Shown in pieces: positions 1 through 64,000 of a stretch of DNA of 64,000 nt (positions within the stretch are counted from its first letter, which is position 1; every line of letters starts with the position of its first letter). The translations under genes were made by a program, and so were the position numbers. The notes beneath the pieces were generated by a model. That model was given only the letters and a program-made list of their open reading frames with translations, was not told the origin of the DNA and ran no database searches. The DNA comes from Isurus oxyrinchus (Eukaryota), in assembly GCA_026770705.1 (NCBI GenBank), contig JANJGN010000071.1:1736001-1800000 (forward strand), in the 5' to 3' direction.

Positions 1-400
1 ACTGGAGTCTTGGTATCAGCTCTGATTCTGTGTTGAAGGAAGGTAAACTCCAGATCAGCAAGACCCTGAATTGGATGAGCAACCTCCTGAACAGAGAATT
101 GTAGATTTATACCTCAGTGCTCCATCAATCAAATACAATTCATTGCCTGTAAATCCCTTGGCAAAATCTTGAGGATGTGAAAGTTTCTTTCATTCTAGGT
201 GGACAGCACATCTACTGGTGGGAGAATGTAACTGTAGTTTGACTGTTTACATAGGCAGTGCCCATTATAAATTTGACAGTGGAAGTTATATGGAGGGAAG
301 GTATCTGGAAATGCATACAGACATCAGATACAGAGAGATGATGCATGGAGTCTTGCTGTGCATGCTGCTTGCTCACATTAAAAACTTTATTTGTTTTTAG

Positions 401-682
401 ATGCTCCACAGAATCTCTCAATTAATTCTCATGATATGATTAACGTTTCATCGATCAATATAATTGAGCGGAATTCTGCAGTGATAATCTGCTCTGTCGA
501 GAGCTTCCCAGCTTCTAACCTGACGTGGCGACATCTTAATGTCCCAATGAACAGAACAAGTTCCAACAATGAGCTGTGGTTGGTGATTCCTCAGGTTACA
601 TCCAGGGACACTGGAGACTATCAGTGTGTGGCAGAGAATGAACATGGAGCAGTGGAGGGGTTCATAACCATCACTGTGGAAC
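401..682 (+). CDS. Siglec-like gene A, C2/I-set Ig exon repeat 1 (phase 1-1, 94 codons)
   Basis: ttttag|AT...GAAC|gtgagt. Encodes APQNLS...IICSVESFPASNLTW...DTGDYQCVAENEHG...ITVE, with the canonical Ig C-W-DxGxYxC pattern. Confidence 0.93.
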
Positions 683-705
683 GTGAGTTACTGCAAACTT
701 CAACA

Positions 706-771
<66 letters not shown>

Positions 772-1204
772 GTGTGAGATCCCTCTCCTCTCTCAGTGCT
801 GCACTGGAGTCTTGGTATCAGCTCTGATTCTGTGTTGAAGGAAGGTGAACTCCAGATCAGCAAGACCCTGAATTGGATGAGCAACTTCCTGAACAGAGAA
901 TTGTAGATTTACCCCTCAGTGCTCCATCAATCAAATACAATTCACGGGCTTTCAATCCCTTGGGGGCATCTTGAGAGTGTTAAAGGATGTTTGTTTCATT
1001 CTGGGTGGACAGCAACTCTGTTGGTGGGAGAATGCAACTGCAGTGTGACAGTTTACATAGGAAGTGCCCATTATAAATGTGACAGTATTTTTTCCTGAGG
1101 GAAGGTACCTGGAAATGCATTCCAATATCAGATACAGAGACATGATGCATGGAGTCTTGCTGTGCACTATGCTTGCTCACATTAAAATCTTTATTTGTTT
1201 TTAG

Positions 1205-1486
1205 ATGCTCCACAGAATCTCTCAATTACTTCTCCAGATATGATTAACGCTTCATCGATCAATATAATTGAGGGGAATTCTGCAGTGATAATCTGCTCTG
1301 TCGAGAGCTTCCCAGCTTCTAACCTGACGTGGCGACATCTTAATGTCCCAATGAACAGAACAAGTTCCAACAATGAGCTGTGGTTGGTGATTCCTCACGT
1401 TACATCCAGGGACACTGGAGACTATCAGTGTGTGGCAGAGAATGAACATGGAGCAGTGGAGGGATTCATAACCATCACTGTGGAAT
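1205..1486 (+). CDS. Siglec-like gene A, C2 Ig exon repeat 2
   Basis: Same 282-nt exon, AG/GT intact, frame open. Confidence 0.93.
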
Positions 1487-1527
1487 GTGAGTTAACGCAA
1501 ACTTCAACATCACTCACACGCACACAG

Positions 1528-5481: not shown

Positions 5482-5548
5482 GACTATCAGTGTGTGGCAG
5501 AGAATGAACATGGAGCAGTGGAGGGGTTCATAACCATCACTGTGGAAT
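5482..5548 (+). pseudogene. Truncated sixth C2 repeat (3' 67 nt only, DYQCVAENEHGAVEGFITITVE plus donor)
   Basis: Matches the 3' end of the repeats; the 5' part and its acceptor are missing. Confidence 0.85.
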
Positions 5549-6362: not shown

Positions 6363-6459
6363 GTAGAGACTCCAGTAAAGGGACAGTAGGATTGTTCACG
6401 GCTGGGATCATGTTGAGTGTTTTCCTGGCTGGAATCTTCATCTTCATCTGTGTGAGAAA
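6363..6459 (+). CDS. Gene A transmembrane exon (RDSSKGTVGLFTAGIMLSVFLAGIFIFICVRK), phase 1-2
   Basis: ttttacag|GT...AA|gtaagt. ~22 hydrophobic residues followed by CVRK; no charged residue in the membrane span. Confidence 0.9.
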
Positions 6460-7152: not shown

Positions 7153-7234
7153 GAGAAAGACAGCGATGGAGGAGAGAGTTTCAGGGACCAATTACATTGC
7201 ATTGACCCTCAGGTCACTCTCTGTGAAGCACCAG
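7153..7234 (+). CDS. Gene A cytoplasmic exon 1 (RKTAMEERVSGTNYIALTLRSLSVKHQ), phase 2-0
   Basis: ttgcag|G...CAG|gtacag. Phases link the TM exon to the last exon; TNYIAL Tyr motif. Confidence 0.8.
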
Positions 7235-8192: not shown

Positions 8193-8441
8193 GATGAACA
8201 GAACTTGCTGATTACTGAGCCCCGGGAAACAACCAGAGACACAACTAGTGAGGGGGAGACCCCAGCTCCCCGGGATCTCTCTGAAGGTCCAGTGGGAGGC
8301 GATGTTGGACATGGGAACCCCGACAATACCGCCGACCTTCTCTACGCCAACATCAACTTTTCAAAGCTGCCCGGCGGTGACAGGACTGTGCACAGGAGCG
8401 AGGACACGGAATACGCACAGATCAGGTTCCAGAAAAACTGA
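8193..8441 (+). CDS. Gene A terminal cytoplasmic exon with ITIM (LLYANI) and ITSM (TEYAQI)
   Basis: tctgtag|GAT. ITIM plus distal ITSM spacing typical of inhibitory Siglecs; TGA at 8439-8441. Confidence 0.92.
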   Translation, partial: DEQNLLITEPRETTRDTTSEGETPAPRDLSEGPVGGDVGHGNPDNTADLLYANINFSKLPGGDRTVHRSEDTEYAQIRFQKN

Positions 8442-16401: not shown

Positions 16402-16447
16402 ATGGGAGAGGTCGGTCTGATATTGATCTTCATCAGCTTGCTGCAAG
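16402..16447 (+). CDS. Gene B signal-peptide exon (MGEVGLILIFISLLQ-G)
   Basis: Acceptor catttag at 16387, hydrophobic core, SLLQG|gt ending shared with the other leaders; phase 1. Confidence 0.8.
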
Positions 16448-17267: not shown

Positions 17268-17555
17268 GAGTGACGTCAGAGGGATGGTCTATGAAGGCGC
17301 TGCCTCGGAGGGCCATCAGCAGCTCTTGTGTGGTTATTCCGTGTAGCTTTGACTTTCCTTCCCACTCTTACACAGCACTGCATGGAGCTTGGTATAAATA
17401 TTGGTATAGATGGAAATATACCATCACATACACCAAAGATCCCAACTATGGGATGGCCACATTCGTGGGACGTGCTAAAATAATCGGCGACTTGGAAGGG
17501 AAGAATTGTTTGGTGAGGATTGACAGTCTCAGAGCTGAAGACAGTGATGTGTATT
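17268..17555 (+). pseudogene. Gene B Siglec/MAG-like V-set exon, 3'-truncated
   Basis: ctttcag|GA. W..SCVVIPCSFDFP..HGAWY..F.GRAKIIGDLEGKNCLVRIDSLRAEDSDVY, then an abrupt switch to Gypsy sequence and a stop at 17567. Confidence 0.85.
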
Positions 17556-18700
17556 GCACCCAATTCTAAATCTTTTCACCAATTAGTCGACCTCATGAAG
17601 ATGTGTTTTCAGCTGAAGCCGTGGGTAATAATGAAAAGGTTTAAGTTTAACTCCAGAGTAAGGGCCCAGGGAGAGTCCATCGCAACCTATACAGTGAAGT
17701 GGAAGCAGGTGACTGAGCACTGGGACCTCGGAGACACACTCAATGACATGTTGCGGGGCCGATTGGTTTGTGTCGTTCACCCCAACGCCATTCAGAGCTG
17801 TTTACTCACAGAAGCCGACATCAATTTGAAGCGCTCCATGAAAATAGCGCCAGGCATGGAAAGTGCTGGGAGAGACTGGCGGGATTTACAGGATGTACAA
17901 CATGGCACCAGTCCTCAGCTGGGACAGGAAACAACCACCGGGCGTGAGGCTCAAACTGGAGAGAGAGAGAGAGAGAGAGAGACAGCCACCAAGCGAGAGA
18001 CAGTCTCTGCCGCTCCAGAAACTAAAAGGCTTCGTGGGAGTATTTCAGCAGCAACTCCGAAGTTGGTCTGTTCTCGATGTGGGGGGCATTGAGCACGTAC
18101 TGGACACCTGCAGGTCCAAGGGGGCAGAATGCCATCACTGCCACAAGAAAGGGGCGGGTAATAAAGCAATGCAGGGTGAAATCGAGACAGCCCATCAGGC
18201 AGTGCACCAACATGATGGAAGTGAATAATATCACAGAGCCTGAAGCTGCTGATACCGATGTCTATTCCCTGTCCAATGTCACAGTGGTAAAAACTGAACC
18301 TATAACCATCACAACCCAAGTGAATGGGCAGCCACTAGTAATGGGGCAGATACGGGAGCCTCAGACACAGTGGTGGAAGAGCCCACATTTAAACAGCTAA
18401 ATGAAGGAACCCAGACGCTGAATTTAGAGCCAACAATGGATCAGCTGAAGACACACACTGGAGAATCCATACAGGGAAAGGACCTCATCCCAGTACCTGT
18501 GTCCTACAGGCAGCAGACAGCCCAGCTTCCAGTGATCATAGCGACAGGTGAGGGCCCTAGTCTTCTGGGCCGAGACTGGTTCCAGAAAACCAAGCTCAGC
18601 TGCTCTGAAATGTTTCACTGGAGGAGTTGCTGAGTTGCTGGGGGAATATGAGAGTGTATCTCGGAATGAGTTTGAAGAATTGAAGCATCCTCACAGGCTG
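17556..18700 (+). mobile_element. Gypsy/Ty3 LTR-retrotransposon gag-protease relic
   Basis: RFKFNSRVRAQGESIATY...LNDMLRGRLVC, CSRCGGH and CHHCHKKG zinc knuckles, VNGQPL..DTG-like and GEGPSLLGRDW protease motifs; frameshifted. Confidence 0.85.
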
Positions 18701-24375: not shown

Positions 24376-24379
24376 TCTC

Positions 24380-27447: not shown

Positions 27448-27696
27448 GGTAAACAGAACGTGCTGATTACTGAGCCCCGGAACACAACCAGAGACACAAC
27501 TAGTGAGGGGGAGACCCCAGCTCCCCGGGGTGTCTCTGAATGTGCAGTGGGAGGCGATGCTGGACATGGGAACCCCGACAATCCCAACGACCTTCTCTAC
27601 ACCAATCCCCAAGTCTTCAGGGTGCCCAGTGGTGATGGGTCTGTCCACAGGGAAGAGCAGACGGAATACGCACAGATCAGATTCAAGAGAAACTGA
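27448..27696 (+). CDS. Paralogous terminal cytoplasmic exon: ITIM degenerate (LLYTNP), ITSM retained (TEYAQI)
   Basis: Clear paralog of 8193-8441 including the upstream intron; 3'UTR homology resumes at ~28400; frame open. Confidence 0.75.
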   Translation, partial: GKQNVLITEPRNTTRDTTSEGETPAPRGVSECAVGGDAGHGNPDNPNDLLYTNPQVFRVPSGDGSVHREEQTEYAQIRFKRN

Positions 27697-28849: not shown

Positions 28850-31490
28850 CAAATGAATGAAGTTATAGCACAAATAGAGATTAATGGGTACGATAAGATG
28901 GACACTGCAGAGAGTTGGTTGCAAAGTGACCAAGGTTGGAAATTGAAAATTGAAGGATATTTGGAATCTTTGAAAGGATAGGAAAAATGAAAAGGAGGTG
29001 GGGTAGCTCTGTTAATAAAAGATGAGACCTGTAAAGTAGTGAGAAATGATTTTGGCTCAGATGTCAAGATGCACAGTCAGTTTGGGTGAACATAAGGAAT
29101 TGCAAGGGAAAGAAATCACTGGTGGGTTGGTTTATACTCCCCCCTGAATGTAGTTACACTGCAGGGGTAGATTATAAATCAATACATGAGGAGGTTTATG
29201 AGAAAGGCACCACATTAATCATGGGAGTTTTCAATCGTCATATGGATTAGCCAAATCAGATTAGCAAATTTAGCTTTCAGCGAGGTTATACAGATTGTAT
29301 TCAGGACAGTATTTTAGAACAATCCAACATGGAACCAACCAGGGAAGAGGCTGTTTTAGTCCTGGCAATGTTTAATGAGACAAGACTAATTAACATCTCA
29401 TTGTAAAGGACCCTCAAGGGAAGAGTAATCATACGGTGTTGAAATTTAATATTCAGTTTAGAAACTTGGTTCTTAAGCTAGTGTCATAAACTTAACTAAA
29501 GGCAATTACAAGGGTTAAAAGTAGAGTCGGCCCAAGTAGAGTGGGACAGCAGGTTAAAGTGGGGGGGGGGGTGTGTAGATGCGCAGCAACAGGCATCTAA
29601 AGAGATGTTTCATAAATTCCAATGAAGATATTTTCCAGTAAGAAAGAAAGAATCTATAAGAAGGATGGAGCATCGGCTGCTAACTCAGGAAGCTAAGGAC
29701 GGTATCCAATTGTGAGATAAAGCCGGCAATGTTGGGATGCTTAGTGATAGGCTGGAGATTGGGAATATTTGAGAAACCAGAAAAGTGAGGGGAGAAATAT
29801 AAGGAGGCAGAAATGATGATATGAGAGTAAACTAGCAAGAACCATAAACAATGACAGTGAGATGTTGTACATTAAAATAAGAGAGAAGCTCCAGTAATAA
29901 TGGGACACATAGAAAATCAGACTGGGGAATTAATAATGGGAAACAGGAAATGACAGAGACTTTCAACAAGAATTTTGTGTCTGTCTTCACAGTAAAAATC
30001 TCTAAAACCATCCCAATAGCAGGAGAAAGTCACGGTGCAACAAGGAGGGAGGAACATAAAACAATCACTATCACCAGAGAAAAAGTATTAAGAAAACTAA
30101 TGAGACAAATGCTGACAAGTCCCATGGAGCAGACGGCCTGAATGTGAGGGTCTGAAAGGAAATGGCTGCAGAGACGGTGGATGCATTGGATGTAATCTTC
30201 CAGAATTCCTTAGATTATGGGAAGGTCCCAGCGGATTGGATAAACATAAATGAAACACCTCTGTTCAATAAAGGGAGGAGGCAGAAAGCAAGAAACCACA
30301 GGTCAGTTAGTCTAATATCTGTCATTGGGAAAATACCAGAATTCATTATGAAGGAGGGAGCAGCAGGACATTTAGAAAACCATAATTCAATCAGACAGAG
30401 TCAACATGGGTTTGTGAAAGGGATATCATGTTTGAAAAAATTATTAGATTTACTTGAGGATGTAACAAGTGGATTGGATAAAGGGGAACCTGTAGATGTG
30501 GTGTATTAGGGACTATGACACAGCCAAGGGTAAAGGCTGAGTTGTTCAAATCCCAGAGGGAAAATTGAAACAACTGTCATAACCCAATTTTGCTGTTTGT
30601 AATTTCGAGATGAAGACTTTGAATTCAGTAGGAATAAGACCACCGATGATTGTGGGTTTTTTATATAAAACTAAATAAACCACTTATTAATTTAACAACA
30701 AATTTAACACATACACATTGGCTACAAATAACTACTATAAAAACTTTTTAACAAATCCCCCAATTAATCAACCTCACGTAAATCTCTACTAAGGCAACAA
30801 TGAACCATTGACATAATATAGACACCAGGCAAAGCACATTTGACATTACGAATTCCGAATGAGGTTCCTTTGCAAGTTGGTTGGAGGCTACAGGCTGGTT
30901 AGGTCTGAAATGCTCCTGCCTCACACACACAAACTCCTTCCTTTATATAGCTAGCTTTCCCTTTGAATGTAAATTTTCCATTGTATCACTCGGTCTTCTG
31001 AACTCCAGCTCTTCGAACAATAAAACCCCCTTTCATAGCACCAATTTCATTAGTAAGTTCAAGAAAAAACACATCTTTTGGATCCGTCTAACTAGGTGCA
31101 AGATTTTACCCCCAGTCTGGAATGGTTTATTCAACAATTGCAAATGAACACTTTACTGTTCTCCTCACAATTCACCCAATTAACATCTCAAAACTACTAA
31201 ACATCAAAGCAGACAAACCCACTGGCTTTATTCCAATTAAGACACACCCAGACACACACCTATACATGGACCACCACTAGAATTCTATTTTAAATAATAA
31301 TTTCCAAGCACATTTTACACACAAATATCTCTTCATGACATTGGATTTCCAAAAGGCATTCGATAAGGAGCCACATCAAAGGATACTGCACAGGGTGAAA
31401 TTGGTTGGTGTTGGAGGGGATATATTAATATGGATAGAGGACTGGCTAACTGACAGGAAACAGAGAGCCAGGATAAATGGGTAAATGGAT
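28850..31490 (+). mobile_element. Degenerate CR1 LINE (endonuclease plus RT), interrupted at ~30510-31340
   Basis: GGGVALLI, IFQNSLDYGKVPADW, SQHGFVKG, GEPVDVVY|LDFQKAFDK. Confidence 0.85.
30510..31340. mobile_element. Probable solo LTR inserted in the CR1 RT
   Basis: CR1 frame splits at DVVY|LDFQK; insert ends ...cttcatgaca; non-coding. Confidence 0.55.
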
Positions 31491-34484: not shown

Positions 34485-36211
34485 GTAATATCATCGTCAG
34501 CCTGGACAGATTTATGGTAAAGGGTCTTTGTAAAGATCATTCTTATTGAGCTGTGATTGGGAACTAATTCAGCAGTGAGCCAGTGTACAAACTCATACCA
34601 AGTCCCATTCACCCATCACCCCTGTGCTCACTGATATACACTGACTCCCTGTCTGACAGCAGAATTGGACAAGAATAGAGATCTCAGAGGGTTGTAGGGG
34701 CTGGAGACGGTTACACAATTAGGCAGGATTGTAGCAGCTAGAGCAGAATCTTAAACTTCAGGTGATGTCGGCTGTTGGTCAGTGATAGATGGGGAGTGAT
34801 GGGTTGAGCAGAAAAACAGGGAAAAAAACAGGGGGATGACAGCTATCCTGATGCTAGGACACGGATAACAATGCGCTGTAATTTTGTGTCTATTGCTGAT
34901 TTTAGTCAGAATTTCCCATGAAGACAACACAGCAGCTCCTAGAATAGACAGGTTGTTCAGTGTCACACTTCCTGTCCATTCTCACCATGCTAGATACTTC
35001 AATAAGGGAGCAAGATAACTGAAAGAGAGAAGGAAGGCAAAGCTGTCTGTGTGTAAAACTGTCAAATATTCTGAGTTATCATGAGTGTCTCTGATCTGCT
35101 GCAGAGTTTAAATTTCACAGAATCTGAGCACTTTGCAGCTCAGAGAGAGACCATTGACTCACTGCCTGAAAGGGCGGTGGAAGCAGATTCAACAGGAACT
35201 TTCAGAAGGGGAACTGGATAAATACTTGAAGGTGACATTTTGCAGGGCTTTGGAGGAGAGAGCAGAGCTGAGCGTGGGAATAATTAGACAGATATTTCAA
35301 AGCATCAACTATTCACAATCTACATTAGTGACTTGGATGAAGGGACTGACTGTACTGTAGACAGATTTTCTGACTGTATGGTGAAGATAGGTAGGAAATA
35401 TATAAGCTGTGCAGGAAAGCAAGTTGTGAGGAGGACACAAAGAGGCTGCAGAGGCAGATAAGTAGTTTCAGTGAGTGGATAAAAAAATGAGTGGCTGGCA
35501 TGTAAGGAATGAAAATGTCAGGGTGTCCAGCTGATCCTATTTGTTCTGTTCTTATATTCTTATACAGACACAGGGTTTACTGACAGTGCACAGCAAAGTG
35601 CTGTTCTCTCACTTTGTACCAACTTCCTCATTTTGTCTCACAGAGACACATCAACCCTTTCTAATTAAATACACAGAGGGAGCAGCACAGGAAGAGGTCA
35701 TTCAGCCCAAGCAGAGCGTGTGGGCAGTTCCTCCCCAGGCGAGCAGTTGGACAGGTCCTGGGTAAGTAACGGAACGATTGGAATTCACTTCCACCACCAA
35801 CACCGTCCTTTGTTGATGTTGTGACTTAATAAAGACAGATTCCAATGATTGATGCCTTTGAAAGATTTCTACTGATTATTGAGATCTGGGTGTGAGGGTC
35901 AAGTCTGTTGTACAGAACATCTTTCTAGCTCAAGGGATGAGGGAAGTGGAGTGACATGAGATTTTGGATGCTCTGAGGTGGTGAAAGGTGCTATACAAAT
36001 GCAAATCCTTCATTGTTTTTCTTCCTTAAAGCCTTGTAACTCTCTGCAGAGCACCTATCATCCCACCGTGAATCAAATTAGTCAGTGAATACATTGTCTA
36101 AAAGGAGTTCTGATCTTTCGAGAGCTGTCGGACAAGAGGTGAGGTCTCATTAACTCCTTTCTCTTTCAGAGTTTGACAGTGAGAAGTGAATGGAATATCT
36201 GGCAGTGGACA

Positions 36212-36251
36212 ATGATCGGGAAATCTTACTTCCTCCTGTCACTTCTCCAAG
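36212..36251 (+). CDS. Leader exon L3 of gene C (MIGKSYFLLSLLQ-G)
   Basis: As L1; the leader nearest V exon 39311. Confidence 0.85.
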
Positions 36252-37418
36252 GTAATATCATCGTCAGCTTGGACAGATTTATGGTAAAGGGTCTTTGTAA
36301 AGATCATTCTTATTGATCTCTGATTGGGAACCGATTCAGCAGTGAGCCAGTGTACAAACTCATACCAAGTCCCATTCACCCATCACCCCTGTGCTCACTG
36401 ATATACACTGACTCCCTGTCTGACAGCAGAATTGGAGAAGAATAGAGATCTCAGAGCGTTGTAGGAGCTGGAGACGGTTACACAATTAGGCAGGATTGTA
36501 GCAGCTAGAGCAGAATCTTAAACTTCAGGTGATGTCGGCTGTTGGTCAGTGATAGATGGGGAGTGATGGGTTGAGCAGAAAATCAGGGAAAGAACCTGGG
36601 GGATGAAATCTATCCAGGTGCTAGGATTCTGATAGCAATATCCTGAAATTTGTGTCTTTTGCTGATTTTGGTCAGAATTTCCCATGAAGACAACACAGCA
36701 GCTCCTAGAATAGACAGGCTGTTCAGTGTCACACTTCCTGTCCATTCACACCATGCCAGAAACTTTGATAAGGGAGCAAGATAACTGAAAGAGAGAAGGG
36801 AGGCAAAGCTGTCTGTGTATTCTGAGTTATCATGATTGTCTCTGATCTGCTGCAGAGTATAAATTTCACAGAATCTGAGCACTTTGCAGCTCAGAGAGAG
36901 ACCATTGACTCACTGCCTGAAAGGGCGGTGGAAGCAGATTCAACAGGAACTTTCAGAAGGGGAACTGGATAAATACTTGAAGGGAAATTTGCAGGGATGT
37001 GTGAAAGGTGCTGGAGAGGAATTGGGAAAGAGCCAGCACATGCACGATGGGTCAAATTAACTCCTCCTGTGTTGTATCATTCAACAATCAGAGAATTTTA
37101 GATCCTTATCAGCAAATCTTCAGAATCCTGCTGAATCATGGATATTTCAGAAGGACAGTTAACAAGAGGTTTCTGGTATCAGCGTTTCATATGGGACCCA
37201 GTTCAGTTTGAACAAATAAACAACGTCATCTTTGAAAGTCATGAACCCACCACAGTGGCACCTCCGACACATGCAGAGCTCAGGCTAGAGGCTCTTTGTT
37301 AGTGTGTTTCACAGTCTCTGCTGGAGTAGGGTCAGTGCTGAGCTTGGGGACAAGTCAGTCTACAATGCTGCATCGGAATCAACAATACAACAATATGGGG
37401 TTTGGATCAGAAATAATC

Positions 37419-39310: not shown

Positions 39311-39679
39311 TTGGACTGTCACAAGAGTGGAAAGGTGACACTCCACGAGAGGTGTCAGCGCAGCAATGCTCGTGTGTACAGATTCCATGTCATTACAGTT
39401 ATCCAGCAAAATTTGAAAACCAACCGCGAGGTGCACTCTGGTTTAATAATGAGAAACAGATTCCCTGGGCTCCCATTGCCTTTCACTCCAAGGATCACAG
39501 TCATGAGTTACCACGGTTCCACCATCGGACCCGGCTGTCTGGAGACCTGAAAGATGGCGACTGTTCCCTGATTATAAACAACATCAGACGGGAAGATGCA
39601 GGACCTTATTTTTTCAGAATAGAATTTGACAATGGTCCGAGCCATAACTATTACCCTGTAACCCAGCTTCACGTTTCTG
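39311..39679 (+). CDS. Gene C Siglec V-set exon with the essential F-strand Arg
   Basis: ccccag|TT...CTG|gtaagt. EW...SCVQIPC...W...RTRLSGDLKDGDCSLII...EDAGPYFFRIE; Siglec-type Cys pattern. Confidence 0.93.
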
Positions 39680-40078: not shown

Positions 40079-40375
40079 ATTTCACAGATAAACCCACAAT
40101 ATTCCCTGCTGAAATTATTGCAGGAAAGCATGTGGATGTAAGCTGCACCTTCAACACAACGTGCAATGGAACAGCAGCACCTGTCTTAACCTGGGACACT
40201 CCCACTGACGTACCTGGATCTGTCTCAAACACTGTAACTCAGCATGGTGTCACTCTGACCTATACTTCTGTTCTGACCCTGACCCCGTCACTCAAACACC
40301 ACGGACACACTCTCAGCTGCAGAGTGAGATATCCATCTGTTTCATCGGAGCAGACCCTCATACTAACTGTGCAAG
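40079..40375 (+). CDS. Gene C C2 domain 2 exon
   Basis: KPTIF...SCTFNTTC...P.LTW...SVLTLTPSLKHHGHTLSCRVRYP...LTVQ; carries the extra Cys for the V-C2 interdomain bond; phase 1-1. Confidence 0.93.
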
Positions 40376-41899: not shown

Positions 41900-42950
41900 A
41901 CCTCTGACAGTGCAGCACTCTCTCAGAACTGACACTCCAACAGTTCAGCACCACCTCTCCACTGACCCTCTGACAATGTAGCGCTCCCTCAGTACTGACA
42001 CTCCAAAAGTTCAGCACCATCTCTCTACTGACCCTCTGACAATGCATCACTCCCTCAGTACTGACCACCTGACAGTGCAGTGCTCCCGCAGCACTGACCC
42101 ACCGACAATGCTGCAATCCCTAGGTACTGACCCTCCGACAGTGCAGCACTCCCTCAGTACTGAGAGTCAGTACTGCGGGAGTGCTGCACTGTCGGACGGT
42201 CAGTACTGAGGGAGTGCTGCACTGTCAGAGGGCAGTACTGAGAGAGTGCCACACTGTCAGAGTGTCAGTACTGAGGGAGTGCTGCACTGTCAGAGGGTCA
42301 GTACTGAGGGAGTGCTGCACTTCGGAGGGTGAATACTGAGGGAGTGCTGCACTGTCAGAGGGTCATTACTGAGGGATTGCTGCAATGTCAGAGGGTCATT
42401 ACTGAGGGAGTGCTGCACTGTCGGAGGGTCAGTATTGAGGGAGTGCTGCACTGTCGGAGGGTGAATACTGAGGGAGTGCTGCACTGTCGGAGGGTGAATA
42501 CTGAGGGAGTGCTGCACTGTCATCGGGTCAGTACTGAGGGAGTGCTGAACTTTCAGAGGGTCAGTACTGAGGGGGTGCTGCACTGTTGGAGGGTGAGTAC
42601 TGAGGTGGTGCTGCACCATTGGGGGTTCAGTACTGACGGAGTGCTGCACTGTCACCGGGTCAGTACTGAGGGAGTGCTGCACTGTCAGAGGGTCAGTACT
42701 GAGGGCTGCTGCACTGTCAGAGGGTCAGTACTGAGGGAGTGCTACACTGTCAGATGGTGAGTACTGAGGGAGTGCTGCACTATCAGAGGGTCAGTACTGA
42801 TGGAGTGCTGCACTGTCAGAGGGTCAGTACTGATGGAGTGCTGTACTGTCGGAGGGTCAGTACTGAGGGAGTGCTGCACCGTTGGGGGGTCAGTATTGAG
42901 GGAGTGCTGCACCGTTGGGGGGTCATTGCCGAGTGAGTGCTGCTCTGTCA
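41900..42950. repeat. 33-bp minisatellite, two arrays in opposite orientation (switch at ~42160)
   Basis: cagcactccctcagtactg units up to 42162, then cagtactgagggagtgctg units. Confidence 0.92.
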
Positions 42951-43569
42951 GAATTATCACTTGTATCAAAATGTTTTTAACTTTACTGTTGTTCCCACTT
43001 CAGCTGCAACTGCTCCACATCCCCATGTGTTAACTGGAGCATGTCAGCCTGGAGTTACGTGGAATTGCAGAGCAGAATCTGCTCTCACACATTGAAGCTG
43101 GCAATCGCTAAGTGTCCCTCAGTGATGATGTTTTCTGATGGAATGAAACTTGGCAAAGCCGTGGGTAGTGACAAGGAGAGATTGGGCATGAGAGGGGCAG
43201 GATCAGTGTGAGGTGGGCAGACACATGGCTGATGCAGTTCAGCGCAGTGTCGTGTGAAGTGACGCACTTTGTCAGGATGAATACAGACAGATATTGGACA
43301 GTAATGATTTGGACAGGTGTAGGTGAGCAGAGACCTGGGCGTCTCTCTGCACTCATTCTGAAAGATTAAAGGACAACTTGTTGAGGTGATGAAGAAAGAA
43401 AATGTCTTCCTTGTGTTAACAGACTGAGGAACTGAGTTAAAAGCAAAGAGATCATGCGGGAACTTTATAAATCACTGGTTAGAACTCAGCTGGAATGTTG
43501 TTCAGAACGCTGGGCCTCCACACTTCAGGAAAGATGTAAGAGCTTCAGACAGGGTGTCCAAGAGGACAA

Positions 43570-44359: not shown

Positions 44360-44647
44360 ATGCTCCAGATAAGCCAGTTATTGTGCTCCTGAAGGATTTA
44401 CAGGAGGGGACTCCTGCACATATCATCTGTAAATGCCTCTACACCTGCCCTGATAACCACCCCAATCTAACCTGGAGTGAATTGCTGACTTCCTCGGTCA
44501 GCACCATCACAGAGAACGGTGGTGATGTTTCCGCTCTACTGACCTTTAACCCTTCGTTCAAGCATCATGGACGAACTCTCTGCTGTACGTGTGACTACTC
44601 TCAAACCAGCCATCGAGTGGTCAACTCAGTTACTCTGAGTGTAAAGT
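44360..44647 (+). CDS. Gene C C2 domain 3 exon (domain-2-like, Cys-rich)
   Basis: ttccag|AT...AAGT|gtaagt. APDKPVI...ICKCLYTCP...PNLTW...LTFNPSFKHHGRTLCCTC...LSVK. Confidence 0.9.
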
Positions 44648-45155: not shown

Positions 45156-45413
45156 ATTCTCCTCACAACACGTCTGTCAGGCTGACACTGGAAAAAGGAA
45201 AGGTGATTTCTCTAAGTTGTTCCAGTGACGAGAATCCTGCGGTCCACAATTTCACCTGGTTTAAGATATCCCAAGGAAAGGTGACGAATCTGGCGCTCGC
45301 TGGTCAAACTATTACAGTTCCTTCTGGATTCGATGAGGAAATCTCCTACTACTGTGAAGCAACAAGTATCCTGGGCAGTTCCCAGTCTCTGCCCATTAGA
45401 ATTCCCACTGAAT
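45156..45413 (+). CDS. Gene C C2 domain 4 exon
   Basis: SPHNTSV...LSCSSDENPAVHNFTWFK...YYCEATSILGS...; phase 1-1. Confidence 0.88.
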
Positions 45414-45918: not shown

Positions 45919-46200
45919 ACACACCACAGAATCTCTCAATTAATTCTCTTGATATAATTAACGCTTCATCGATCAATATAATTGAGGGGAATTCTGCAGT
46001 GATAATCTGCTCTGTCGAGAGCTTCCCAGCTTCTAACCTGACGTGGCGACATCTTAATGTCCCAATGAACAGAACAAGTTCCAACAATGAGCTGTGGTTG
46101 GTGATTCCTCACGTTACATCCAGGGACACGGGACACTATCAGTGTGCGGCAGAGAAGGAACATGGAGCAGTGGAGGGATTTATAACCATCTCTGTGGAAC
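45919..46200 (+). CDS. Gene C membrane-proximal C2 exon, near-identical to the gene A repeats
   Basis: 282 nt, frame open, donor gtgagt; acceptor atypical (gtaagtaactgatcag, poor pyrimidine tract). Confidence 0.8.
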
Positions 46201-47464: not shown

Positions 47465-47561
47465 GGCGAGATTCCAATGAATGGAAAGCAGGATTGCTTG
47501 GAGCTGGAATCTGTTTGAGTGTTGGACTGAGTGGATTCTTCATTTTCAAGTGTGTGAGAAA
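47465..47561 (+). CDS. Gene C transmembrane exon (RDSNEWKAGLLGAGICLSVGLSGFFIFKCVRK)
   Basis: ttttacag|GG...AA|gtaagt; same 97-nt length and phases as the gene A TM exon. Confidence 0.88.
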
Positions 47562-49176
47562 GTAAGTGTGAAGGTTTAATTGGTTGTTTTCGAAAATGTT
47601 TTCTTCAAACTTCTCTCCTTATAGAAAGAACTTTCATTTCTATAGCACCTTTTACAACCCAAAACGCTTCACAGCCCCTGAAGAATTTTGATGTTCACCT
47701 ACTGTTTAACATCTCATCCAACACTCAATGTTTCACAACTCAGACCTGTAACAGGCAGTGTTGACCCGGACCATAAGATACCTTGTGACCTACTGAGGAT
47801 GTGAAAGGTGCTATATAAATGAAAACCTTTCTTTTGTTAGTGAATGCAATCTCTTTCCTTTTTCCATGTTTCATTCACTCTCTCTTATCTCCACTAATGT
47901 TGGCCTTCTCATTCTCTCTCTCATTCACTCTCTCTCCAATCTCCACTAATGCTCTCCTTCTCATTCTCTCTCTCATTCACTCTCTCTCTCCAGTCTCCAC
48001 TAATGCTTTCCTTCTCATTCTCTCTCTCATTCACTCTCTCTCTTATCTTCAGTCATGCCCTCCTTCTCATTCTCGCTCTCATTCACTCTCTCTCCTATCT
48101 CCACTAATGCTCTCCTTCTCATTCTCTCTCTCGTCCTCTTACACAATGTTCAGTATCTCACATTTTTAAGGAGCGCTGAGCAACATCTGCTCCTTCAGAA
48201 GATCCACCTCAACACCTGGAGTGAGCAGTGAATTGAAACTCGCTCACCAACTGCTCAGCTTTACACAGGAATCACGTCACAGAGTCAGGACACAAAGGGT
48301 TAACAGTTTGTTTACAACACAACACTAAGGCCCTACGTTTCAGTGAAAGGGTTTTCACAATTGTTCCCCAATTCCTGATTTTACTCACAGAGACACATCA
48401 ACCCTTTCTAATTAAATACACAGATGGATCAGCACAGGAAGAGGTCATTCAGCCCAAGCAGAGCGTGTGGGCAGTACCTCCCCTGGTCAATGACTTTCCA
48501 CTTTTGAGCAGAAATATCATCACAAGTCCAGAACGCAAAGGGTTAACAGCTTCAAAAAACTCTAAACATGAGCTGCATCCTCACAAAGTGACCACTTCCA
48601 CATTTTGACTCACAGTGACACATCAACCCTTTCTAATTAAATACACAGAGGGAGCAACACAGGAAGAGGTCATTCAGCCCAAGCAGAGCGTGTGGGCAGT
48701 ACCTCCCCAGGCGAGCAGTCGGACAGGTCCTGGGTAAGTAACGGAACGATTGGAATTCACTTCCACGACCAACACCGTCCTTTGTTGATGTTGTGACTTT
48801 ATAAAGACAGATTCCAATGATTGATGCCTTTGAAAGATTTCTACTGATTATTGAGATCTGGGTGTGAGGCTCAAGTCTGTTGTACAGAACAACTTTCTAG
48901 CTCAAGGGATGATGGAATTGCAGAGACATGAGCTTGGGGACGTCCTGAGGTGGTGAAAGGCGATATAGAAATGCAAGTCCTTCATTGTTTTACTTTCTTA
49001 AAGCCTTGTAACTCTCTGCAGAGCACATATCATCCCACAGAGAATGAAATTAGTCTGTGAAGACATTGTCTAAAAGCAGTTCTGATCTCTCGAGAGCTGT
49101 CAGACAAGAGGTGAGGTCTCGTTAACTCCTTTCTCTTTCACAGCTTGAGAACCAATGAAATACCTGGGAGTGGACA

Positions 49177-49216
49177 ATGATCAGGAAATCTTACTTCCTC
49201 CTGTCACTTCTCCAAG
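49177..49216 (+). CDS. Leader exon L4 (MIRKSYFLLSLLQ-G); no V exon of its own
   Basis: Paralog of L1-L3; its intron breaks off at ~50390 into a minisatellite and a new promoter. Confidence 0.7.
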
Positions 49217-51413
49217 GTAATATCATTGTCAGCTCGGACAGATTTATGGCTAATCATCTTTGTAAAACATAATTCTTATTGAGCTGTGATTGGGAACAGA
49301 TTCAGCAGTGAGCCAGTGTACAAACTCACACCAAGTCCCATTCACCCATCACCCCTGTGCTCACTGATATACACTGACTCCCTGTCTGACAGCAGAATTG
49401 GAGGATAGCAGAGGACTTTGAGGTTTGCATGGTTGGAGGAGAAAGTGATTGGAGAAGAGGAATGGAGGGAATGGAAATTGAGGATGAGAATCTTAAACTC
49501 GAGGCTCTGCTGGACTGGGAGCCAGTGCAGGTCAGCGAGTGGCGGAAGGCGTGAGGTGTTGAATTGAGAAACAGTGATAAATACTGGGGATGAAGTCTAT
49601 CCTGATGCTTGGACTCCGATAGCAAAGGAATGAAATTTGTGTCTTTTGCTGATTTTAGTCAGAATTTCCCATGAAGACAACACAGCAGCTCCTAGAATAG
49701 ACAGGCTGTTCAGTGACACACTTCCTGTCCATTCTCACCTTGCTAGATACTTCAATAAGGGAGCAAGATAACTGAAAGAGAGAAGGAAGGTAAAGCTGTC
49801 CGTGTGTAAATGGGTCAATATTCAGTTTGCATATTTGTCTTTCTCTCGACACATGCAGAGCTCAGGCTAGAGGCGCTTTGTTAGTGTGTTTCACAGTGTC
49901 TGCTGGAGTAGGGTCAGTGCTGAGCTTGGGGACAAGTCAGTCTACAATGCTGCATCGGAATCAACAATACAACAATATGGGGTTTGGATCAGAAATAATC
50001 CCTTAGACAATGAGGATCCAAAGAGATTCCTTAGACAATGAGGATCCAAAGAGATTCCTTAGACAATGAGGATCCAAAGAGATTCCTTAAACAATGAGGA
50101 TCCAAAAAGATTCCTTAGACAATGAGGATCCAAAGAGATTCCTCAGACAATGTGGATCCAAAGAGATTCCTTAGACAATGAGGATCCAAAGAGATTCCTT
50201 AGACAATGAGGATCCAAAGAGATTCCTTAGACAATGAACATACAAAGTGCACCAATCAGATTGAATCAGATTAGCTAATCAGCTGTGTTGAAGAGCAGAC
50301 AGGAATGTTAGGCTAATTAGTGATTCATGACGGTGACAATGGGGGGAGTTCTGACGGCTCCTAATCCATTGTCCTGTCTTGTAAATCAGCACCTTAATAC
50401 TGACCCTCCAACAGTGCAGCACTCCCTCAGTACTGATCCTCCAACATTGCAGCACTCCCTGATTAATGTCCCTCTGACAGTGCAGCACTCCCTCAGTACT
50501 GACCCTCAAACAGTGGAGATCTCCCTCAGTACTGACCTTACAATAGTGCAACACTCGCTCAGTAATGACCATCCGACAGTGCAGCACTTGCTCAGTACTG
50601 ACACTGGGGAGTTTCAGTCTACTCTGTGGGGCAGACGTCCCCTGAATCGGGTCTTGAATCCCACAACATTCTGACCCCCTGAATTTGGCTGTGAAACCCA
50701 CTGACCCACAGGAGAAACTCCTGGTCAATGACTGTCCACATGTGAGCAGAAATATCACCACAGGGTCAGGACACAAAGTTCACCAACATCTCAAAACATG
50801 AGCTGCTCTGTCACTTTGATCCAACTTCCTCATTTTGTCTCACAGAGACACATCAACCCTTTCTCACTAAATACACAGAGGGGGCAGCACAGGAAGAGGT
50901 CATTCAGCCCAAGCAGAGCGTGTGGGCAGTTCCTCCCCAGGCGAGCAGTCGGACAGGTCCTGGGTAAGTAACGGAACGATTGGAATTCACTTCCACGACC
51001 AACACCGTCCTTTGTTGATGTTGTGACTTTATAAAGACAGATTCCAATGATTGATGCCTTTGAAAGATTTCTACTGATTATTGAGATCTGGGTGTGAGGC
51101 TCAAGTCTGTTGTACAGAACATCTTTCTAGCTCAAGGGATGAGGGAAGTGCAGGGACATGAGCTTTGGGACATCCTGAGGTGGTGAAAGGTGCGATAGAA
51201 ATGCAAATCCTTCATTGATTTTCTTTCTTAAAGCCTTGTAACTCTCTGCAGAGCACCTATCATCCCACAGAGAATCAAACTATTCTGTGAAGACATTGTC
51301 TAAAAGCAGTTCTGATCTCTCGAGAGCTGTCGGACAAGAGGTGAGGTCTCATTAACTCCTTTCTCTTTCACAGCTTGAGAGTGAGAAGTGGATGGAATAT
51401 CTGGGAGTGGACG

Positions 51414-51453
51414 ATGATCGGGAAATCTTACTTCCTCCTGTCACTTCTCCAAG
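51414..51453 (+). CDS. Leader exon L5 of gene D (MIGKSYFLLSLLQ-G)
   Basis: Paralog of L1-L3 with intact splice sites. Confidence 0.75.
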
Positions 51454-52144: not shown

Positions 52145-52175
52145 TATTACCCTGTAACCCGGCTTCACGTTTCTG
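52145..52175 (+). pseudogene. Remnant of the deleted V exon of gene D (last ~31 nt plus donor)
   Basis: The pre-V intron (matching 39050-39300) joins directly to tattaccctgtaacccggcttcacgtttctg|gtaag. Confidence 0.88.
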
Positions 52176-53033: not shown

Positions 53034-53330
53034 ATTTCACAGATAAACCCACGATATTCCCTGCTGAAATTATTGCAGGAAAGCGTGTGGATGTAAGCTG
53101 CACCTTCAACACAACGTGCAATGGAACAGCAGCACCTGTCTTAACCTGGGACACTCCCACTGACGTACCTGGATCCGTCTCAAACACTGTAACTCAGCAT
53201 GGTGTCACTCTGACCTATACTTCTGTTCTGACCCTGATCCCATCACTCAAACACCACGGACACACTCTCAGCTGCAGAGTGAGATATCCATCTGTTTCAT
53301 CGGAGCGGACCCTCATACTAACTGTGCAAT
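53034..53330 (+). CDS. Gene D C2 domain 2 exon (intact, near-identical to 40079-40375)
   Basis: tgttag|AT...CAAT|gtaagt; frame open; no further Ig or TM exon before the next promoter. Confidence 0.8.
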
Positions 53331-60559: not shown

Positions 60560-60955
60560 TGATCCTCTGACAGTGCAGCACTCCCTCAGTACTGATTCTC
60601 CAACAGTGCAGCACTCCCTCAGTACTGACCCTCTGACAGTGCAGCACTCCCTCAGTACTGACCCTCTGGCAGTGCAACACTCCCACAATACTGACCCTTC
60701 AACAGTGCAGCACGCCCTCAGGAATGACTCTCTGACAGTGCAGCACTCCCTCAGTACTGACCCTCTGGCAGTGCAGCACTCCCACAATACTGAGCCTCTG
60801 ACAGTGCAGCATTCCCTCAGTACTGACCCTCTGGCAGTGCAGCACTACCACAATACTGAGCCTCTGACAGTGCAGCACTGCTTCAGTACTGACCCTGCAA
60901 CAGTGCAGCACGCCCTCAGGAATGACCCTCTGACAGTGCAGGACTCTCAGTCCTG
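60560..60955. repeat. 33-bp minisatellite
   Basis: ~12 units. Confidence 0.9.
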
Positions 60956-61776
60956 ACACCGAGTGCCGGTCTGGTTTGGCAGTCTGAATTTTGCCAAATG
61001 AATCTCGAACAGACGACCTTCTCACTCAGACAGCGAGAGAGGGTTTGAAACCCAATGACCCACAGGAGAAATTCCTGGTCAATGACTTTCCACTTTTGAG
61101 CAGAAATATCATCACAAGTCCAGAACGCAAAGGGTTAACAGCTTCAAAAAACTCTAAACATGAGCTGCATCCTCACAAAGTGACCACTTCCACATTTTGA
61201 CTCACAGTGACACATCAACCCTTTCTAATTAAATACACAGAGGGAGCAACACAGGAAGAGGTCATTCAGCCCAAGCAGAGCGTGTGGGCAGTACCTCCCC
61301 AGGCGAGCAGTCGGACAGGTCCTGGGTAAGTAACGGAACGATTGGAATTCACTTCCACGACCAACACCGTCCTTTGTTGATGTTGTGACTTTATAAAGAC
61401 AGATTCCAATGATTGATGCCTTTGAAAGATTTCTACTGATTATTGAGATCTGGGTGTGAGGCTCAAGTCTGTTGTACAGAACAACTTTCTAGCTCAAGGG
61501 ATGATGGAATTGCAGAGACATGAGCTTGGGGACGTCCTGAGGTGGTGAAAGGTGATATAGAAATGCAAGTCCTTCAATGTTTTTCTTTCTTAAAGCCTTG
61601 TAACTCTCTGCAGAGCACCTATCATCCCACAGAGAATCAAATTAGATCCGTGAAGACATTGTCTAAAAGCAGTTCTGATCTCTCGAGAGCTGTAGGACAA
61701 GAGGTGAGGTCTCATTAATTCCTTTCTCTTTCAGAACTTCAGAGTTAGAAGCTGAGGAAATATCTGGGAGTGGACA

Positions 61777-61816
61777 ATGATTGGGAAATCTTTCTTCCTC
61801 CTGTCACTTCTCCAAG
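61777..61816 (+). CDS. Leader exon L6 of gene E (MIGKSFFLLSLLQ-G)
   Basis: Paralog of L1-L5 with intact splice sites. Confidence 0.85.
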
Positions 61817-63434
61817 GTAATATCATCGTCAGCTCAAACAGATTTATGGCTAATAGTCTTTGTAAAAGAACATTCTTATTGAGCTGTGATTGGGAACCGA
61901 TTCAGCAGTGAGCCAATGTACAACCTCACACCAAGTCCCATTGACCCATCACCCCTGTGCTCACTGATATACACTGACTCCCTGTCTGACAGCAGAATTG
62001 GAGGAGAGCAGAGATCTCAGAGGGTTGAAGGGGCTGGATGAGGTTACAGAGCCAGCGAGTGGAGAGGGGGTTGGGGGGATTGGGAATTGAGCATGAGAAT
62101 CTTAAAATGGAGGCACTGCTTGACTGGGAGCCTATGTAAGTCAGTGTGGATGGGGGGAAGGGTGGTAAAAGGTTGAGTAGAAAATCAGGATAAAAACTGG
62201 AGGATGAAGTCTCTCCCTATGTTAGGTGTCTGATAGCAATATCCTGAAATGTGTCTTTTGCTGATTTTAGTCAGAATTTCCCATGAAGACAACACAGCAG
62301 CTCCTAGAATAGACAGGCTGTTCAGTGTCACACTTCCTGTCCATTCTCACCATGCTAGATACTTCAATAAGGGAGCAAGATAACTGAAAGTGAGAAGGAA
62401 GGTAAAGCTGTCTGTGTGTAAATGGGTCAATATACAGTTTGTATATTTGTCTTTCTCTCGACACATGCAGAGCTCAGGCTAGAGGCACTTTGTTAGTGTG
62501 TTTCACAGGGTCTGCTGGAGGAGGGTCAGTGCTGAGCTTGGGGACAAGTCAGTCTACAATGCTGCATCGGAATCAACAATACAACAATATGGGGTTTGGA
62601 TCAGAAATAATCCATTAGACAATGAGGATCCAAAGAGATTCCATAGACAATGAGGATCCATAGAGATTCCTTAGACAATGAGGATCCAAAGAGATTCCTT
62701 AAACAATGAGGATCCAAAGAGATTCCTTAAACAATGAGGATCCAAAGAGATTCCTTAGACAATGAGGATCCAAAGAGATTCCTCAGACAATGAAGGTCCA
62801 AAGTGCACCAATCAGATTGAATCAGATTAGCCAATCAGCTGTGTTGAAGAGCAGACAGGAATGTTAGGCTAATTAGTGATTCATGACGGTGATAATGGGG
62901 GGAGTTCTGAGGGCTCCTAATCCATTGTCCTGTCTTGTAAATCAGCACTGAATGGATCTCAATTGGTGCGTCTTGTAGACAGTGTATTGGGTCACATTTA
63001 ATCATTGACATTAAAGTGATAATTAGAGGCTGCATTTGGACTGAACATGAAGCTGTCACCAGGCCGCTTGAAATTAAGAATCCAAATGGTCCAGATGAGC
63101 ATAGAGCAATAGATTATATTTACATAGTGCCTTAACTGTAAAAAAAAACAATCCAAGGGGCTACACAGGAGCATTATAATACAAGGCACAGTGACACTGT
63201 CTCACTGGCTTCACTAAACAGGGTCCTGAGGACCATGAGCCAATGTAGAATGAACTAGTCCACTCCTGTGTCCAGGATTCTCTTCCATCCATTGTGAAAC
63301 CTTGGGGAGTTCCTTGTGTGTCCTGTAGATGGTCCACACTGCAGCCAATGTGCCCCAGTGATGGAGGGGGTGGATATCGAGTCTGGTGGATCCACAAACC
63401 ATCCAGAGTTAAATATTGATATTTCTCTCCCCAG

Positions 63435-63803
63435 TTGGACTGTCACAAGAGTGGAAAGGTGACACTCCCCGAGAGGTGACAGCGCAGGAAGGTTCGTGTG
63501 GACAGATTCCATGTCATTACAGTTATCCAGCACATTTGGAAAGCCAACCGCGAGGTGGAGTCTGGTTTAATAATGAGGAACAGATCCCCTGGGCTCCCAT
63601 AGCCTTTCACTCCAAGGATCACAGTCACGAGTTACCACGGTTCCGCCATCGGACCCGGCTGTCTGGAGACCTGAAAGATGGCGACTGTTCCCTGATTATA
63701 AACAACATCAGACGGGAAGATGCAGGACCTTATTTTTTCAGAATAGAATTTGACAATGGTCCGAGCCATAACTATTATCCTGTAACCCAGCTTCACATTT
63801 CTG
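63435..63803 (+). CDS. Gene E Siglec V-set exon with the essential Arg; gene continues beyond the window
   Basis: ccccag|TT...CTG|gtaagt; SCGQIPC...GDCSLII...GPYFFRIE. Confidence 0.93.
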
Positions 63804-64000
63804 GTAAGTGCTGTGTTATAATTACTCAACAATTCACATTCAACACTCAATGGGAAATAACACAAACTGTGACGTTTACATATTAACACAAAACACAGCT
63901 TATTATAACACACTGTCTGATTCTCAATAACCTGGTGATAGCTTCCAGTTCAGTCCTAAAGCAACCTCTAATACTCACTTTAATATCAATGATGAAAAGC

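Follow-up and report, generated by a model that had tools for sequence, protein, structure and literature searches.

The 64,000-nt stretch of Isurus oxyrinchus DNA that we analysed (the window) is best read, with a probability of roughly 0.7, as a partly broken slice of a tandem Siglec-like cluster common to sharks and rays, in which heads, stalks and tails have likely been swapped. All features lie on the forward strand with canonical AG/GT ends, and no gene unit inside the window is complete from leader to stop. The initial annotation had placed the DNA in a probable chondrichthyan, correctly: the source is a lamniform shark and the V domains are 90-97% identical to those of Carcharodon and Cetorhinus. 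Its description of the cluster as lineage-specific is true of elasmobranchs as a whole but not of the species, as 114 of 115 clusters of V-domain homologues consist of named proteins from sharks or rays. Expanded, fast-evolving CD33-related Siglec clusters are best known from mammals, and the present cluster may be their shark counterpart. A literature search returned no description of this cluster. In RefSeq the genes have automated "Siglec-like" names, and Cao et al. reportedly described CD33r-like clusters in teleosts in 2009, so the cluster adds to a kind of system already known and does not represent a new one.

That the genes are Siglec-like, as first proposed, is borne out by several comparisons. 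The main-type V domain, intact at 39311..39679 and 63435..63803, matches the Pfam V-set and Ig_CD22 families, and its best PDB sequence matches are Siglec-5, -7, -8 and -10, MAG, CD33 and sialoadhesin. Both intact exons encode YFFRIE on the F strand, with the YFFR arginine aligned to that of Siglec-5/-7/-8; among main-type V domains of relatives, 157 of 172 have this arginine. The extra cysteines of V and D2, from which interdomain and B-E disulfides are predicted, align with Siglec-5 and MAG, the D2 cysteine being carried by the C2-set exon at 40079..40375. For a close Carcharodon relative (P0034, predicted model with pLDDT 81) the first structural match is CD33. The V-set, C2-set, TM and tail architecture can be assembled from window exons and is found whole in relatives. 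From the F-strand arginine, the main-type V domain would be expected to bind sialic acid.

The signalling end is preserved in gene A, at the start of the window. The expanded stalk noted earlier is real: five tandem 282-nt C2/I-set exons (401-682, 1205-1486, 2254-2535, 3519-3800 and 4560-4841, each phase 1-1) differ from one another by 7-16 nt and are followed by the broken 3' fragment of a sixth (5482..5547). A transmembrane exon with an uncharged core (6363..6459, phase 1 to 2), a cytoplasmic exon (7153..7234, phase 2 to 0) and a last exon (8193..8441) follow. In frame with the TM exon, the last exon encodes a membrane-proximal LLYANI and a distal TEYAQI before the stop, which we take from established Siglec knowledge to be ITIM-like and ITSM-like, the arrangement of CD33-related Siglecs. 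Such tails would recruit SHP-1/2 through the two motifs. A putative 54-nt exon at 6896-6949 was dropped because relatives pass from the TM straight to the 7153-7234 exon.

In a tree of V domains, built without an outgroup and without SIGLEC15, the main-type V domains and tetrapod CD33-related Siglecs are split from MAG, CD22 and SIGLEC1 with support of 97/90. Direct sister grouping of the main type with CD33-related Siglecs has support of only 81/76, and the AU test does not reject main type plus MAG (p 0.061) or CD33-related Siglecs plus MAG (0.060). The main-type paralogues group together in a single clade that excludes the tetrapod CD33-related Siglecs, so one-to-one orthologues of the latter are absent. 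The proposed independent expansion stands for the paralogues, but the main family, judged from this tree, may have a founder in common with CD33-related Siglecs and not one of its own. It is very improbable that the window genes are diverged one-to-one orthologues of the conserved Siglecs MAG, SIGLEC1 and CD22. They share the Siglec V/D2 cysteine pattern, a second, B-type V best matches sialoadhesin and MAG and falls on their side of the tree, and the main-type plus MAG clade survives the AU test; no shark or ray protein occurs among 96 MAG matches, a weak absence because the search depends on shared words. However, MAG, SIGLEC1 and CD22 are conserved single-copy genes, whereas relatives of the window genes occur as many paralogues per species, and the B-type domains lack the arginine and are multi-copy in lamniforms. 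MAG from ray-finned fish to rat forms its own clade (100/100), shark CD22-like proteins group elsewhere, and the window genes fall outside both; the one-to-one grouping with known orthologs that had been named as contrary evidence was not seen. In Pristis, the record that carries a CD22-like gene and the record of main-type genes are equal in length.

The initial annotation counted at least five gene units in one orientation. The common orientation is confirmed, but the five-unit parse has to be revised, since "unit C" comprises two genes. The B-type leader exon (16402..16447, phase 1 donor) precedes a V exon (17268..17556; 97% identical to Carcharodon P0116) that is truncated on the F strand, just before the arginine site. 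Relatives carry Tyr instead of the arginine in 24 of 24 B-type domains, and from sequence the B type is Siglec-like, not a canonical Siglec. The V exon adjoins a gag/protease-like LTR-retroelement remnant (17557..18630), which is a lead (feature score 0.91), its gag-asp_protease match having an E value of 0.0066, below the cut-off; Pfam gave no family for the gag-like frame, nor for an exon at 44360-44647. The V exon is indeed cut near 17556 by gag-like sequence, but B cannot be read as one gene whose V is broken: neither a C2 nor a TM exon was found between this V exon and an orphan tail exon (27448..27696; 70% identical to the A tail, with a proximal motif that is not an ITIM and with TEYAQI retained), and no TM or cytoplasmic exon upstream of that tail.

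The rest of the B-type gene lies in "unit C". There the intact main-type V and D2 exons are followed by exons at 44360..44647 and 45156..45413, which are 94% and 84% identical to Carcharodon P0123/P0124 and are B-type D2 and D3 (stalk) exons; "unit C" is hence a main-type leader, V and D2 followed by a B-type body and not, as had been read, one gene. By these similarities, the body of the second, arginine-less subfamily sits in "unit C" and its leader and V 27 kb upstream in "unit B". The joint 44647-45156 was present in 3 of 3 probable RNA runs and 0 of 1 DNA run, and the joint 45413-45919, from B-type D3 to a main-type stalk exon, in 2 of 3 and 0 of 1, respectively. Splicing from B-type D2 through D3 to the main-type stalk exon is thus seen in probable RNA, where the RNA status is a guess, two of the three runs come from a related organism, and contigs do not distinguish this copy from a paralogue. 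Contig depth gives neither copy number nor expression and was left out. The stalk exon (45919..46200) is 93-95% identical in DNA to the five of gene A, compared with 73% between the two TM exons of the window, and has unrelated flanks and a weak acceptor. We do not claim exon-limited gene conversion here because both flanks resemble inserted repeats. The second TM type (47465..47561, phase 1 to 2) is followed by its first cytoplasmic exon (48649-48733), with a partial copy lacking a donor nearby at ~48424-48486, and by the next leader exon (ATG 49177), a segment spanning 48649..49216. The earlier statement that C has no tail must be amended: a first cytoplasmic exon is present, and the last exons were not found within the window. 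This exon, together with the lack of a charged residue in the TM core, rules out a tailless activating reading of "unit C".

The remaining units show the same mixture of intact modules and fragments. Three tandem ~1.76-kb cassettes (31488..37000) each combine an 85-nt cytoplasmic-type exon (at 32151, 33915 and 35677) with a leader exon that has its own acceptor (ATGs 32686, 34445 and 36212). A further cassette occupies 50879..51453 (cytoplasmic-type exon 50879-50963, leader ATG 51414). In unit D the reported loss of V is confirmed: a deletion of 348 nt has taken out the V acceptor together with the larger part of the V exon, leaving a 3' remnant at 52145..52175. The main-type D2 exon of unit D (53034..53330) differs from 40079-40375 at 7 of 297 nt, and no stalk or TM was found downstream of it. 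Unit E consists of a cassette (61241..61816; cytoplasmic-type exon 61241-61325, leader ATG 61777) and the intact, arginine-bearing V exon at 63435..63803, and the gene continues beyond the window. The window thus holds six main-type leader exons versus two intact main-type V exons. This map and the paralogue counts, from homologue matches that include isoforms, agree with the suggested birth-and-death evolution and resemble CD33-related Siglecs in being clustered, rapidly duplicating and accompanied by pseudogenes.

Some of this order may be artificial. The window contains three N gaps and the best DNA run contains only 57% of the words sampled from it, so the local order may be in error. In a scaffold with gaps and many repeats, mis-assembly or a mixture of haplotypes could account for the B leader and V lying 27 kb from D2, for three leaders before one V and for the orphan tail, the real genes being ordinary and contiguous. 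In keeping with this, the junction of main-type head and B-type body spans a 33-bp minisatellite (41901..42952) whose orientation switches at ~42163, a candidate breakpoint or mis-join; the intact Carcharodon gene P0124 consists of exactly a B leader, a B V and this B-type body; and the DNA contigs of run X1 among those listed reach at most 293 nt. We regard this explanation as possible but rather unlikely for most of the odd order, as the copies diverge by 2-7% and carry different insertions, the V deletion of D and the gag-like junction of B both lie in gap-free unique sequence, and the same kinds of gain and loss occur in relatives. It touches the local map only and leaves the family-level result unaffected. 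When the window was searched for last C-type tail exons, an Arg-type TM, further stalk types and the missing 3' part of the B V exon, none of them turned up, nor was there a flanking gene for synteny.

All ectodomain junctions are phase 1, as initially reported: 7 of 7 leader donors, and 12 of 12 complete V/C2 exons, each a single open frame of phase 1-1. The phase is 2 at the TM donors and 0 at the tail acceptor. In the passages of PMC8274849 cited here, one Ig domain per phase 1-1 exon is described for CEACAM and other Ig-superfamily clusters, and phase 1 is generic. Those clusters share this exon structure with the window but have no sialic-acid-binding V domains. Phase 1 was therefore rejected as a sign of special splicing and is no evidence for combinatorial splicing; the suggestion that phase compatibility allows read-through or combinatorial splicing across units is not supported. 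Those cross-unit joins that were seen use tail and leader exons (phases 2 and 0) and not ectodomain junctions. The units might still form one complex transcription unit, with TM and tail exons read through a cassette into the next leader, or with skipping between units, giving combinatorial or two-receptor products. All main-type leaders do lie ~440 nt behind a cytoplasmic exon copy, each with its own acceptor, but the direct join of cytoplasmic exon to leader is in frame and stop-free in only 2 of 6 cassettes and has a stop or frameshift in 4. Two contigs of run X15 contain a joint from a leader donor to a cytoplasmic exon (49216 to 48649), which fits 5'-UTR splicing between tandem cassettes, whereas TM-to-cytoplasmic and cytoplasmic-to-leader joints are absent among the joints listed (15 of 828). 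The RefSeq models P0385, P0001, P0033 and P0017 span two units; however, fused models occur in mammals too (chimpanzee P0345 joins a MAG-type and a CD22-type V) and can stem from reads mapped across paralogues. Moreover, a Cetorhinus gene with seven V exons has the same seven in all 15 isoforms listed, of 20, and these show no V swapping of the protocadherin/Dscam type. Cassette-to-cassette splicing was thus seen in one probable RNA run and whole-gene read-through in RefSeq models only, and we consider a single transcription unit improbable. In the cluster reading that we prefer, whole exons have likely been copied, lost and traded through unequal crossing-over and gene conversion, so that intact modules now stand among fragments, and diversity would arise mainly from this DNA-level shuffling plus ordinary exon skipping, which the generic phase 1 permits.

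The relatives are known from automated RefSeq models, some of which, such as P0017 and P0033, are evident fusions of neighbouring genes. They have two V subfamilies, between 1 and 7 V domains in tandem and variable stalks, either V type occurring with several stalks and tails. At least three tail classes occur: one with an ITIM and an ITSM-like motif, a YxN type, and a short tail behind an Arg-bearing TM. With CD33-related Siglecs of mammals and other tetrapods (Siglec-3, -5 to -12, -14 and -16) they share a tandem cluster with pseudogene fragments, V, C2 and TM modules, the F-strand arginine, an ITIM plus TEYxxI-type tail, lineage-specific duplication and the side of the tree (97/90). They differ in having up to seven tandem V domains, stalks of up to ten near-identical repeats and the YxN-type tail class, and in a further V subfamily that lacks the arginine but sits on the same tails; human Siglec-12 has two V domains (PMC6288428). 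A 2020 paper on fish Siglecs states, in the portion cited here, that fish genomes are without inhibitory CD33-related Siglecs, and that portion does not mention sharks (PMC7226832). Expanded, ITIM-bearing and probably paired elasmobranch Siglecs would, if confirmed, move this self-recognition system back to the base of the jawed vertebrates and offer testable receptor designs unseen in mammals, namely multi-V avidity receptors and a conserved arginine-less V. A more ambitious reading, which we hold doubtful as a whole, is a true elasmobranch CD33-related system inherited from the jawed-vertebrate ancestor: a mix-and-match kit of up to seven serial sialic-acid-binding heads, a decoy head that lacks the arginine, and tails that inhibit or activate. 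By serving again as the 5' exon of the gene that follows, a cytoplasmic exon would let one transcript cross genes and encode two receptors or new head-tail pairs.

The relatives also suggest paired receptors. Mammalian paired Siglecs carry a central Lys as the charged TM residue. The charged residue of the shark relatives is instead an Arg, placed close to the outer helix end, and pairing and adaptor use are putative; receptors with this TM and a short tail would activate through an ITAM adaptor. According to the sections of PMC5701461 drawn on here, Siglecs 11/16 and 5/14 have near-identical ectodomains and different signalling ends and are kept alike by conversion. A comparable arrangement occurs in seven relatives, from Carcharodon and Scyliorhinus, in which an ectodomain is shared between an ITIM tail and a charged-TM short tail; the window contains none. 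Such near-identical heads on opposite tails may form pairs of receptors that concerted evolution has held alike. When 66 V+D2 heads are placed on a tree, taxon requires 9 changes (minimum 5, shuffled 34.7) and tail type 17 (minimum 2, shuffled 23.7), although tail type too is clustered beyond chance, as 0 of 200 shuffles gave so low a count. On this sequence tree the grouping of heads follows lineage more closely than tail, which is also the pattern of paired Siglecs, and for 69 stalk domains taxon needs 7 changes, the minimum.

The Siglec-like cluster in the window is real; it is modular and elasmobranch-wide, and the window holds a fragmentary part of it. Its exons were mapped by six-frame translation, Pfam and splice-site reading; all coding exons lie on the forward strand with AG/GT ends, and the sequence also contains three N gaps and reverse-transcriptase remnants, which we take to be CR1-type. 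Phase 1 at the leader donors and V/C2 junctions, the headline feature of the initial annotation, was seen in 7 of 7 leader donors and in all 12 complete Ig exons, each with a single stop-free frame that is phase 1 in and out; the TM exons exit in phase 2. This feature is ordinary, phase 1 being generally the case for Ig exons (PMC8274849). In gene A, the stalk, TM, cytoplasmic and last exons form an open frame with LLYANI and TEYAQI motifs at its end. The A-type last exon (8193-8441) has an internal GT just 3' of the TEYAQI codons, a point at which two or more tails are chained in models of the relatives P0028, P0047 and P0382. A 33-bp minisatellite family, present at least ten times and in both orientations, is often found close to unit boundaries (7448-8010, 24436-24774, 26786-27310, 41901-42952, 53542-53807, 56864-59553 and 60560-60957), and may seed unequal crossing-over or mis-assembly.

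We rechecked the unit parse by searching the window with 137 homologues. Unit C, previously read as a single gene, is better described as a main-type leader-V-D2 head followed by a B-type gene body, because exons 44360-44647 and 45156-45413 are of the same subfamily as the V at 17268 and not of that of the V at 39311, and because the Carcharodon homologue P0124 runs from a B leader and B V through counterparts of these two exons to two main-type stalk domains, a second TM type and a tyrosine tail. A switch in minisatellite orientation sits between head and body. Unit C had also been reported to lack a tail; the first cytoplasmic exon of its B-type body is present at 48649-48733, and the absence holds for the later tail exons of this type, for which a search of the window found none. 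The damage described in two other units was confirmed, as a gag-like sequence interrupts the V exon of B and 348 nt, including the V acceptor, are gone from unit D. The tail exon at 27448 is an orphan. Between the intact V exons at 39311-39679 and 63435-63803, 12 codons differ nonsynonymously and 5 synonymously, chiefly in the N-terminal half; the V at 39311-39679, in unit C, carries an extra cysteine.

There are six main-type leaders in the window versus two intact main-type V exons. Every such leader, with its own acceptor, lies ~440 nt 3' of a copy of the C-type cytoplasmic exon, forming forward-strand cassettes at 32151-32725, 33915-34484, 35677-36251, 48649-49216, 50879-51453 and 61241-61816; a direct join from cytoplasmic exon to leader is in frame and stop-free in two of the six. 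One 85-nt exon thus recurs ahead of every main-type leader and, in one receptor type, is the first cytoplasmic exon; all three of its reading frames are used among RefSeq models. Duplicated-haplotype artefacts had been named as a way in which the initial reading could fail; divergence of 2-7% between copies in the window, together with insertions that differ from copy to copy, speaks against a single haplotype having simply been duplicated. Local exon order is provisionally that of the assembly, with no junction-spanning contig among those listed; the best DNA run contained 57% of sampled words. A run labelled coral metatranscriptome (X20) held 7% of words, probably through shared repeats or contamination.

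The family had been called lineage-specific, but with the V exon of unit E as query 114 of 115 matched protein clusters were named from sharks and rays and one was unnamed (these are 90% clusters including isoforms, not gene counts). The B V exon gave 22 matches, all elasmobranch, the best at 97% identity. The identities indicate a lamniform shark as the source. Both V types matched Siglecs among PDB sequences: the top matches of the main V were CD33-related, those of the B V sialoadhesin and MAG. For P0034, a close relative, the AlphaFold model had CD33 as its leading match, followed by MAG. Of 172 main-type V domains, 157 carry the F-strand arginine, 9 have Lys there and 6 are other or unparsed; Tyr occupies this site in 24 of 24 B-type V domains, across all sharks and rays seen. 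The B-type set comprises P0116-P0137 and the window copy at 17268-17556, which is cut just before the site. The C-C' region of the B-type V is rich in Trp, Tyr and Lys, and comparable V domains without the arginine are seen in turtle and in unnamed representatives. Among the 115 proteins, whose architectures are automated models, some fused across genes, 31 have at least two tandem V domains, to a maximum of seven, and these are spread across lamniform, carcharhiniform, orectolobiform, sawshark and ray species. P0001, P0002, P0003, P0012 and P0019 have four to seven, differing mainly in the loop after the conserved tryptophan, and a ray protein, P0004, repeats V-D2 five times. Siglec-12 provides a precedent for two-V and arginine-less forms (PMC6288428). 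Recurrent tails are of at least three classes: class A with ITIM and ITSM-like motifs, class C with YxN-type tyrosines, and a short tail that follows an arginine-bearing TM helix, the last in seven proteins from Carcharodon and Scyliorhinus. From the Siglec literature (PMC13358205, section 4.3.4), we infer that the shark receptors may bind sialic acid, recruit SHP and pair with adaptors.

Literature searches on Siglecs in sharks or fish, covering mainly openly searchable papers, turned up nothing that describes this cluster. Fish or shark Siglec clusters may be covered by Cao 2009 and Bornhofft 2018, and supplements of shark genome papers may list these families. The whale-shark genome paper names Siglecs once, within a list (PMC8455134), PMC7226832 describes fish as being without CD33-related Siglecs and leaves sharks unmentioned, and a table in PMC13262535 dates the Siglec family to Tetrapoda. 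The family is of interest for its breadth, for its multi-V and arginine-less members, for tails that are probably paired and for a possible relationship to CD33-related Siglecs.

To place these lineages, 75 V+D2 rows were reduced to a 58-row tree by removing 17 redundant, arginine-less or teleost-specific rows, and to a 42-row bootstrap tree by removing 16 more. The trees use 221 columns, one SIGLEC1, and no outgroup, SIGLEC15 or shark MAG; fast-evolving groups are possibly attracted to each other, and several CD33-related labels were assigned from resemblance (five rows are named). Main-type, B-type, MAG and tetrapod CD33-related sequences each fall on one side of a strongly supported branch. 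A split with 97/90 support sets main-type, two further shark lineages, a teleost protein and the CD33-related group against MAG, CD22-like, SIGLEC1 and B-type, while the direct sister grouping of main-type and CD33-related reaches only 81/76. AU tests rejected a clade of main- plus B-type (p 0.011) and one of all cluster lineages (p 0.037), which with the trees indicates more than one ancient lineage in the cluster; main-type with CD33-related (0.115), main-type with MAG (0.061) and CD33-related with MAG (0.060) were not rejected. No shark or ray protein occurred among 96 MAG matches. The proposed independent expansion stands in that the V+D2 phylogeny places the shark duplications apart from the mammalian ones, but the founder was possibly common to both, and shared ancestry of main-type and CD33-related Siglecs appears favoured, not settled, on these alignments. 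Three Heptranchias proteins (P0219, P0226, P0247) represent at least three further ancient Siglec-like lineages, putatively on the same record as main-type genes, so that the shark cluster may comprise five or more V lineages.

Heads and tails appear to have been exchanged. The 66 V+D2 heads whose tail could be assigned were placed on a tree, where taxon required 9 changes against a minimum of 5 and a shuffled mean of 34.7, and tail type 17 against a minimum of 2 and 23.7 when shuffled; tail type is therefore non-random yet far more loosely tied to the head than lineage is. Stalk domains, 69 in all from the window and 17 chosen proteins, group by taxon with no more than the minimum number of changes, over only 93 columns. 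Within the window, gene A and the B-type body share a stalk exon at 93-95% identity; their TM exons stand at 73%. This head, stalk and TM pattern is that of Siglec-11/16, for which PMC5701461 reports unequal crossing-over and conversion; the same processes between copies have likely exchanged heads, stalks and tails here.

Of 24 runs listed, four were mapped on 43800-49950, three of them probably RNA and one DNA; the runs are contigs whose RNA nature is guessed, and X17 and X19 come from a related organism. Among the 15 joints listed of 828, a GT-AG joint at 44647-45156 occurred in 3 of 3 RNA-type runs and one at 45413-45919 in 2 of 3, with neither in the DNA run. In this gene or a paralogue, therefore, splicing connects B-type exons with a main-type stalk exon. 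In run X15 a leader donor runs on into V-exon sequence, and in two contigs it is joined to a cytoplasmic-type exon, as expected for tandem cassettes. Phase compatibility had been said to allow read-through or combinatorial splicing; phase 1 is generic for Ig exons (PMC8274849), and the case does not rest on it. Read-through between units is possible, its support being RefSeq models, in which Cetorhinus genes extend from the TM and tail of one unit into the next leader. In the RefSeq isoforms P0395, P0405 and P0123 a V or stalk exon is skipped in the ordinary way, and a seven-V Cetorhinus gene keeps the identical seven V exons in all 15 isoforms listed of 20.
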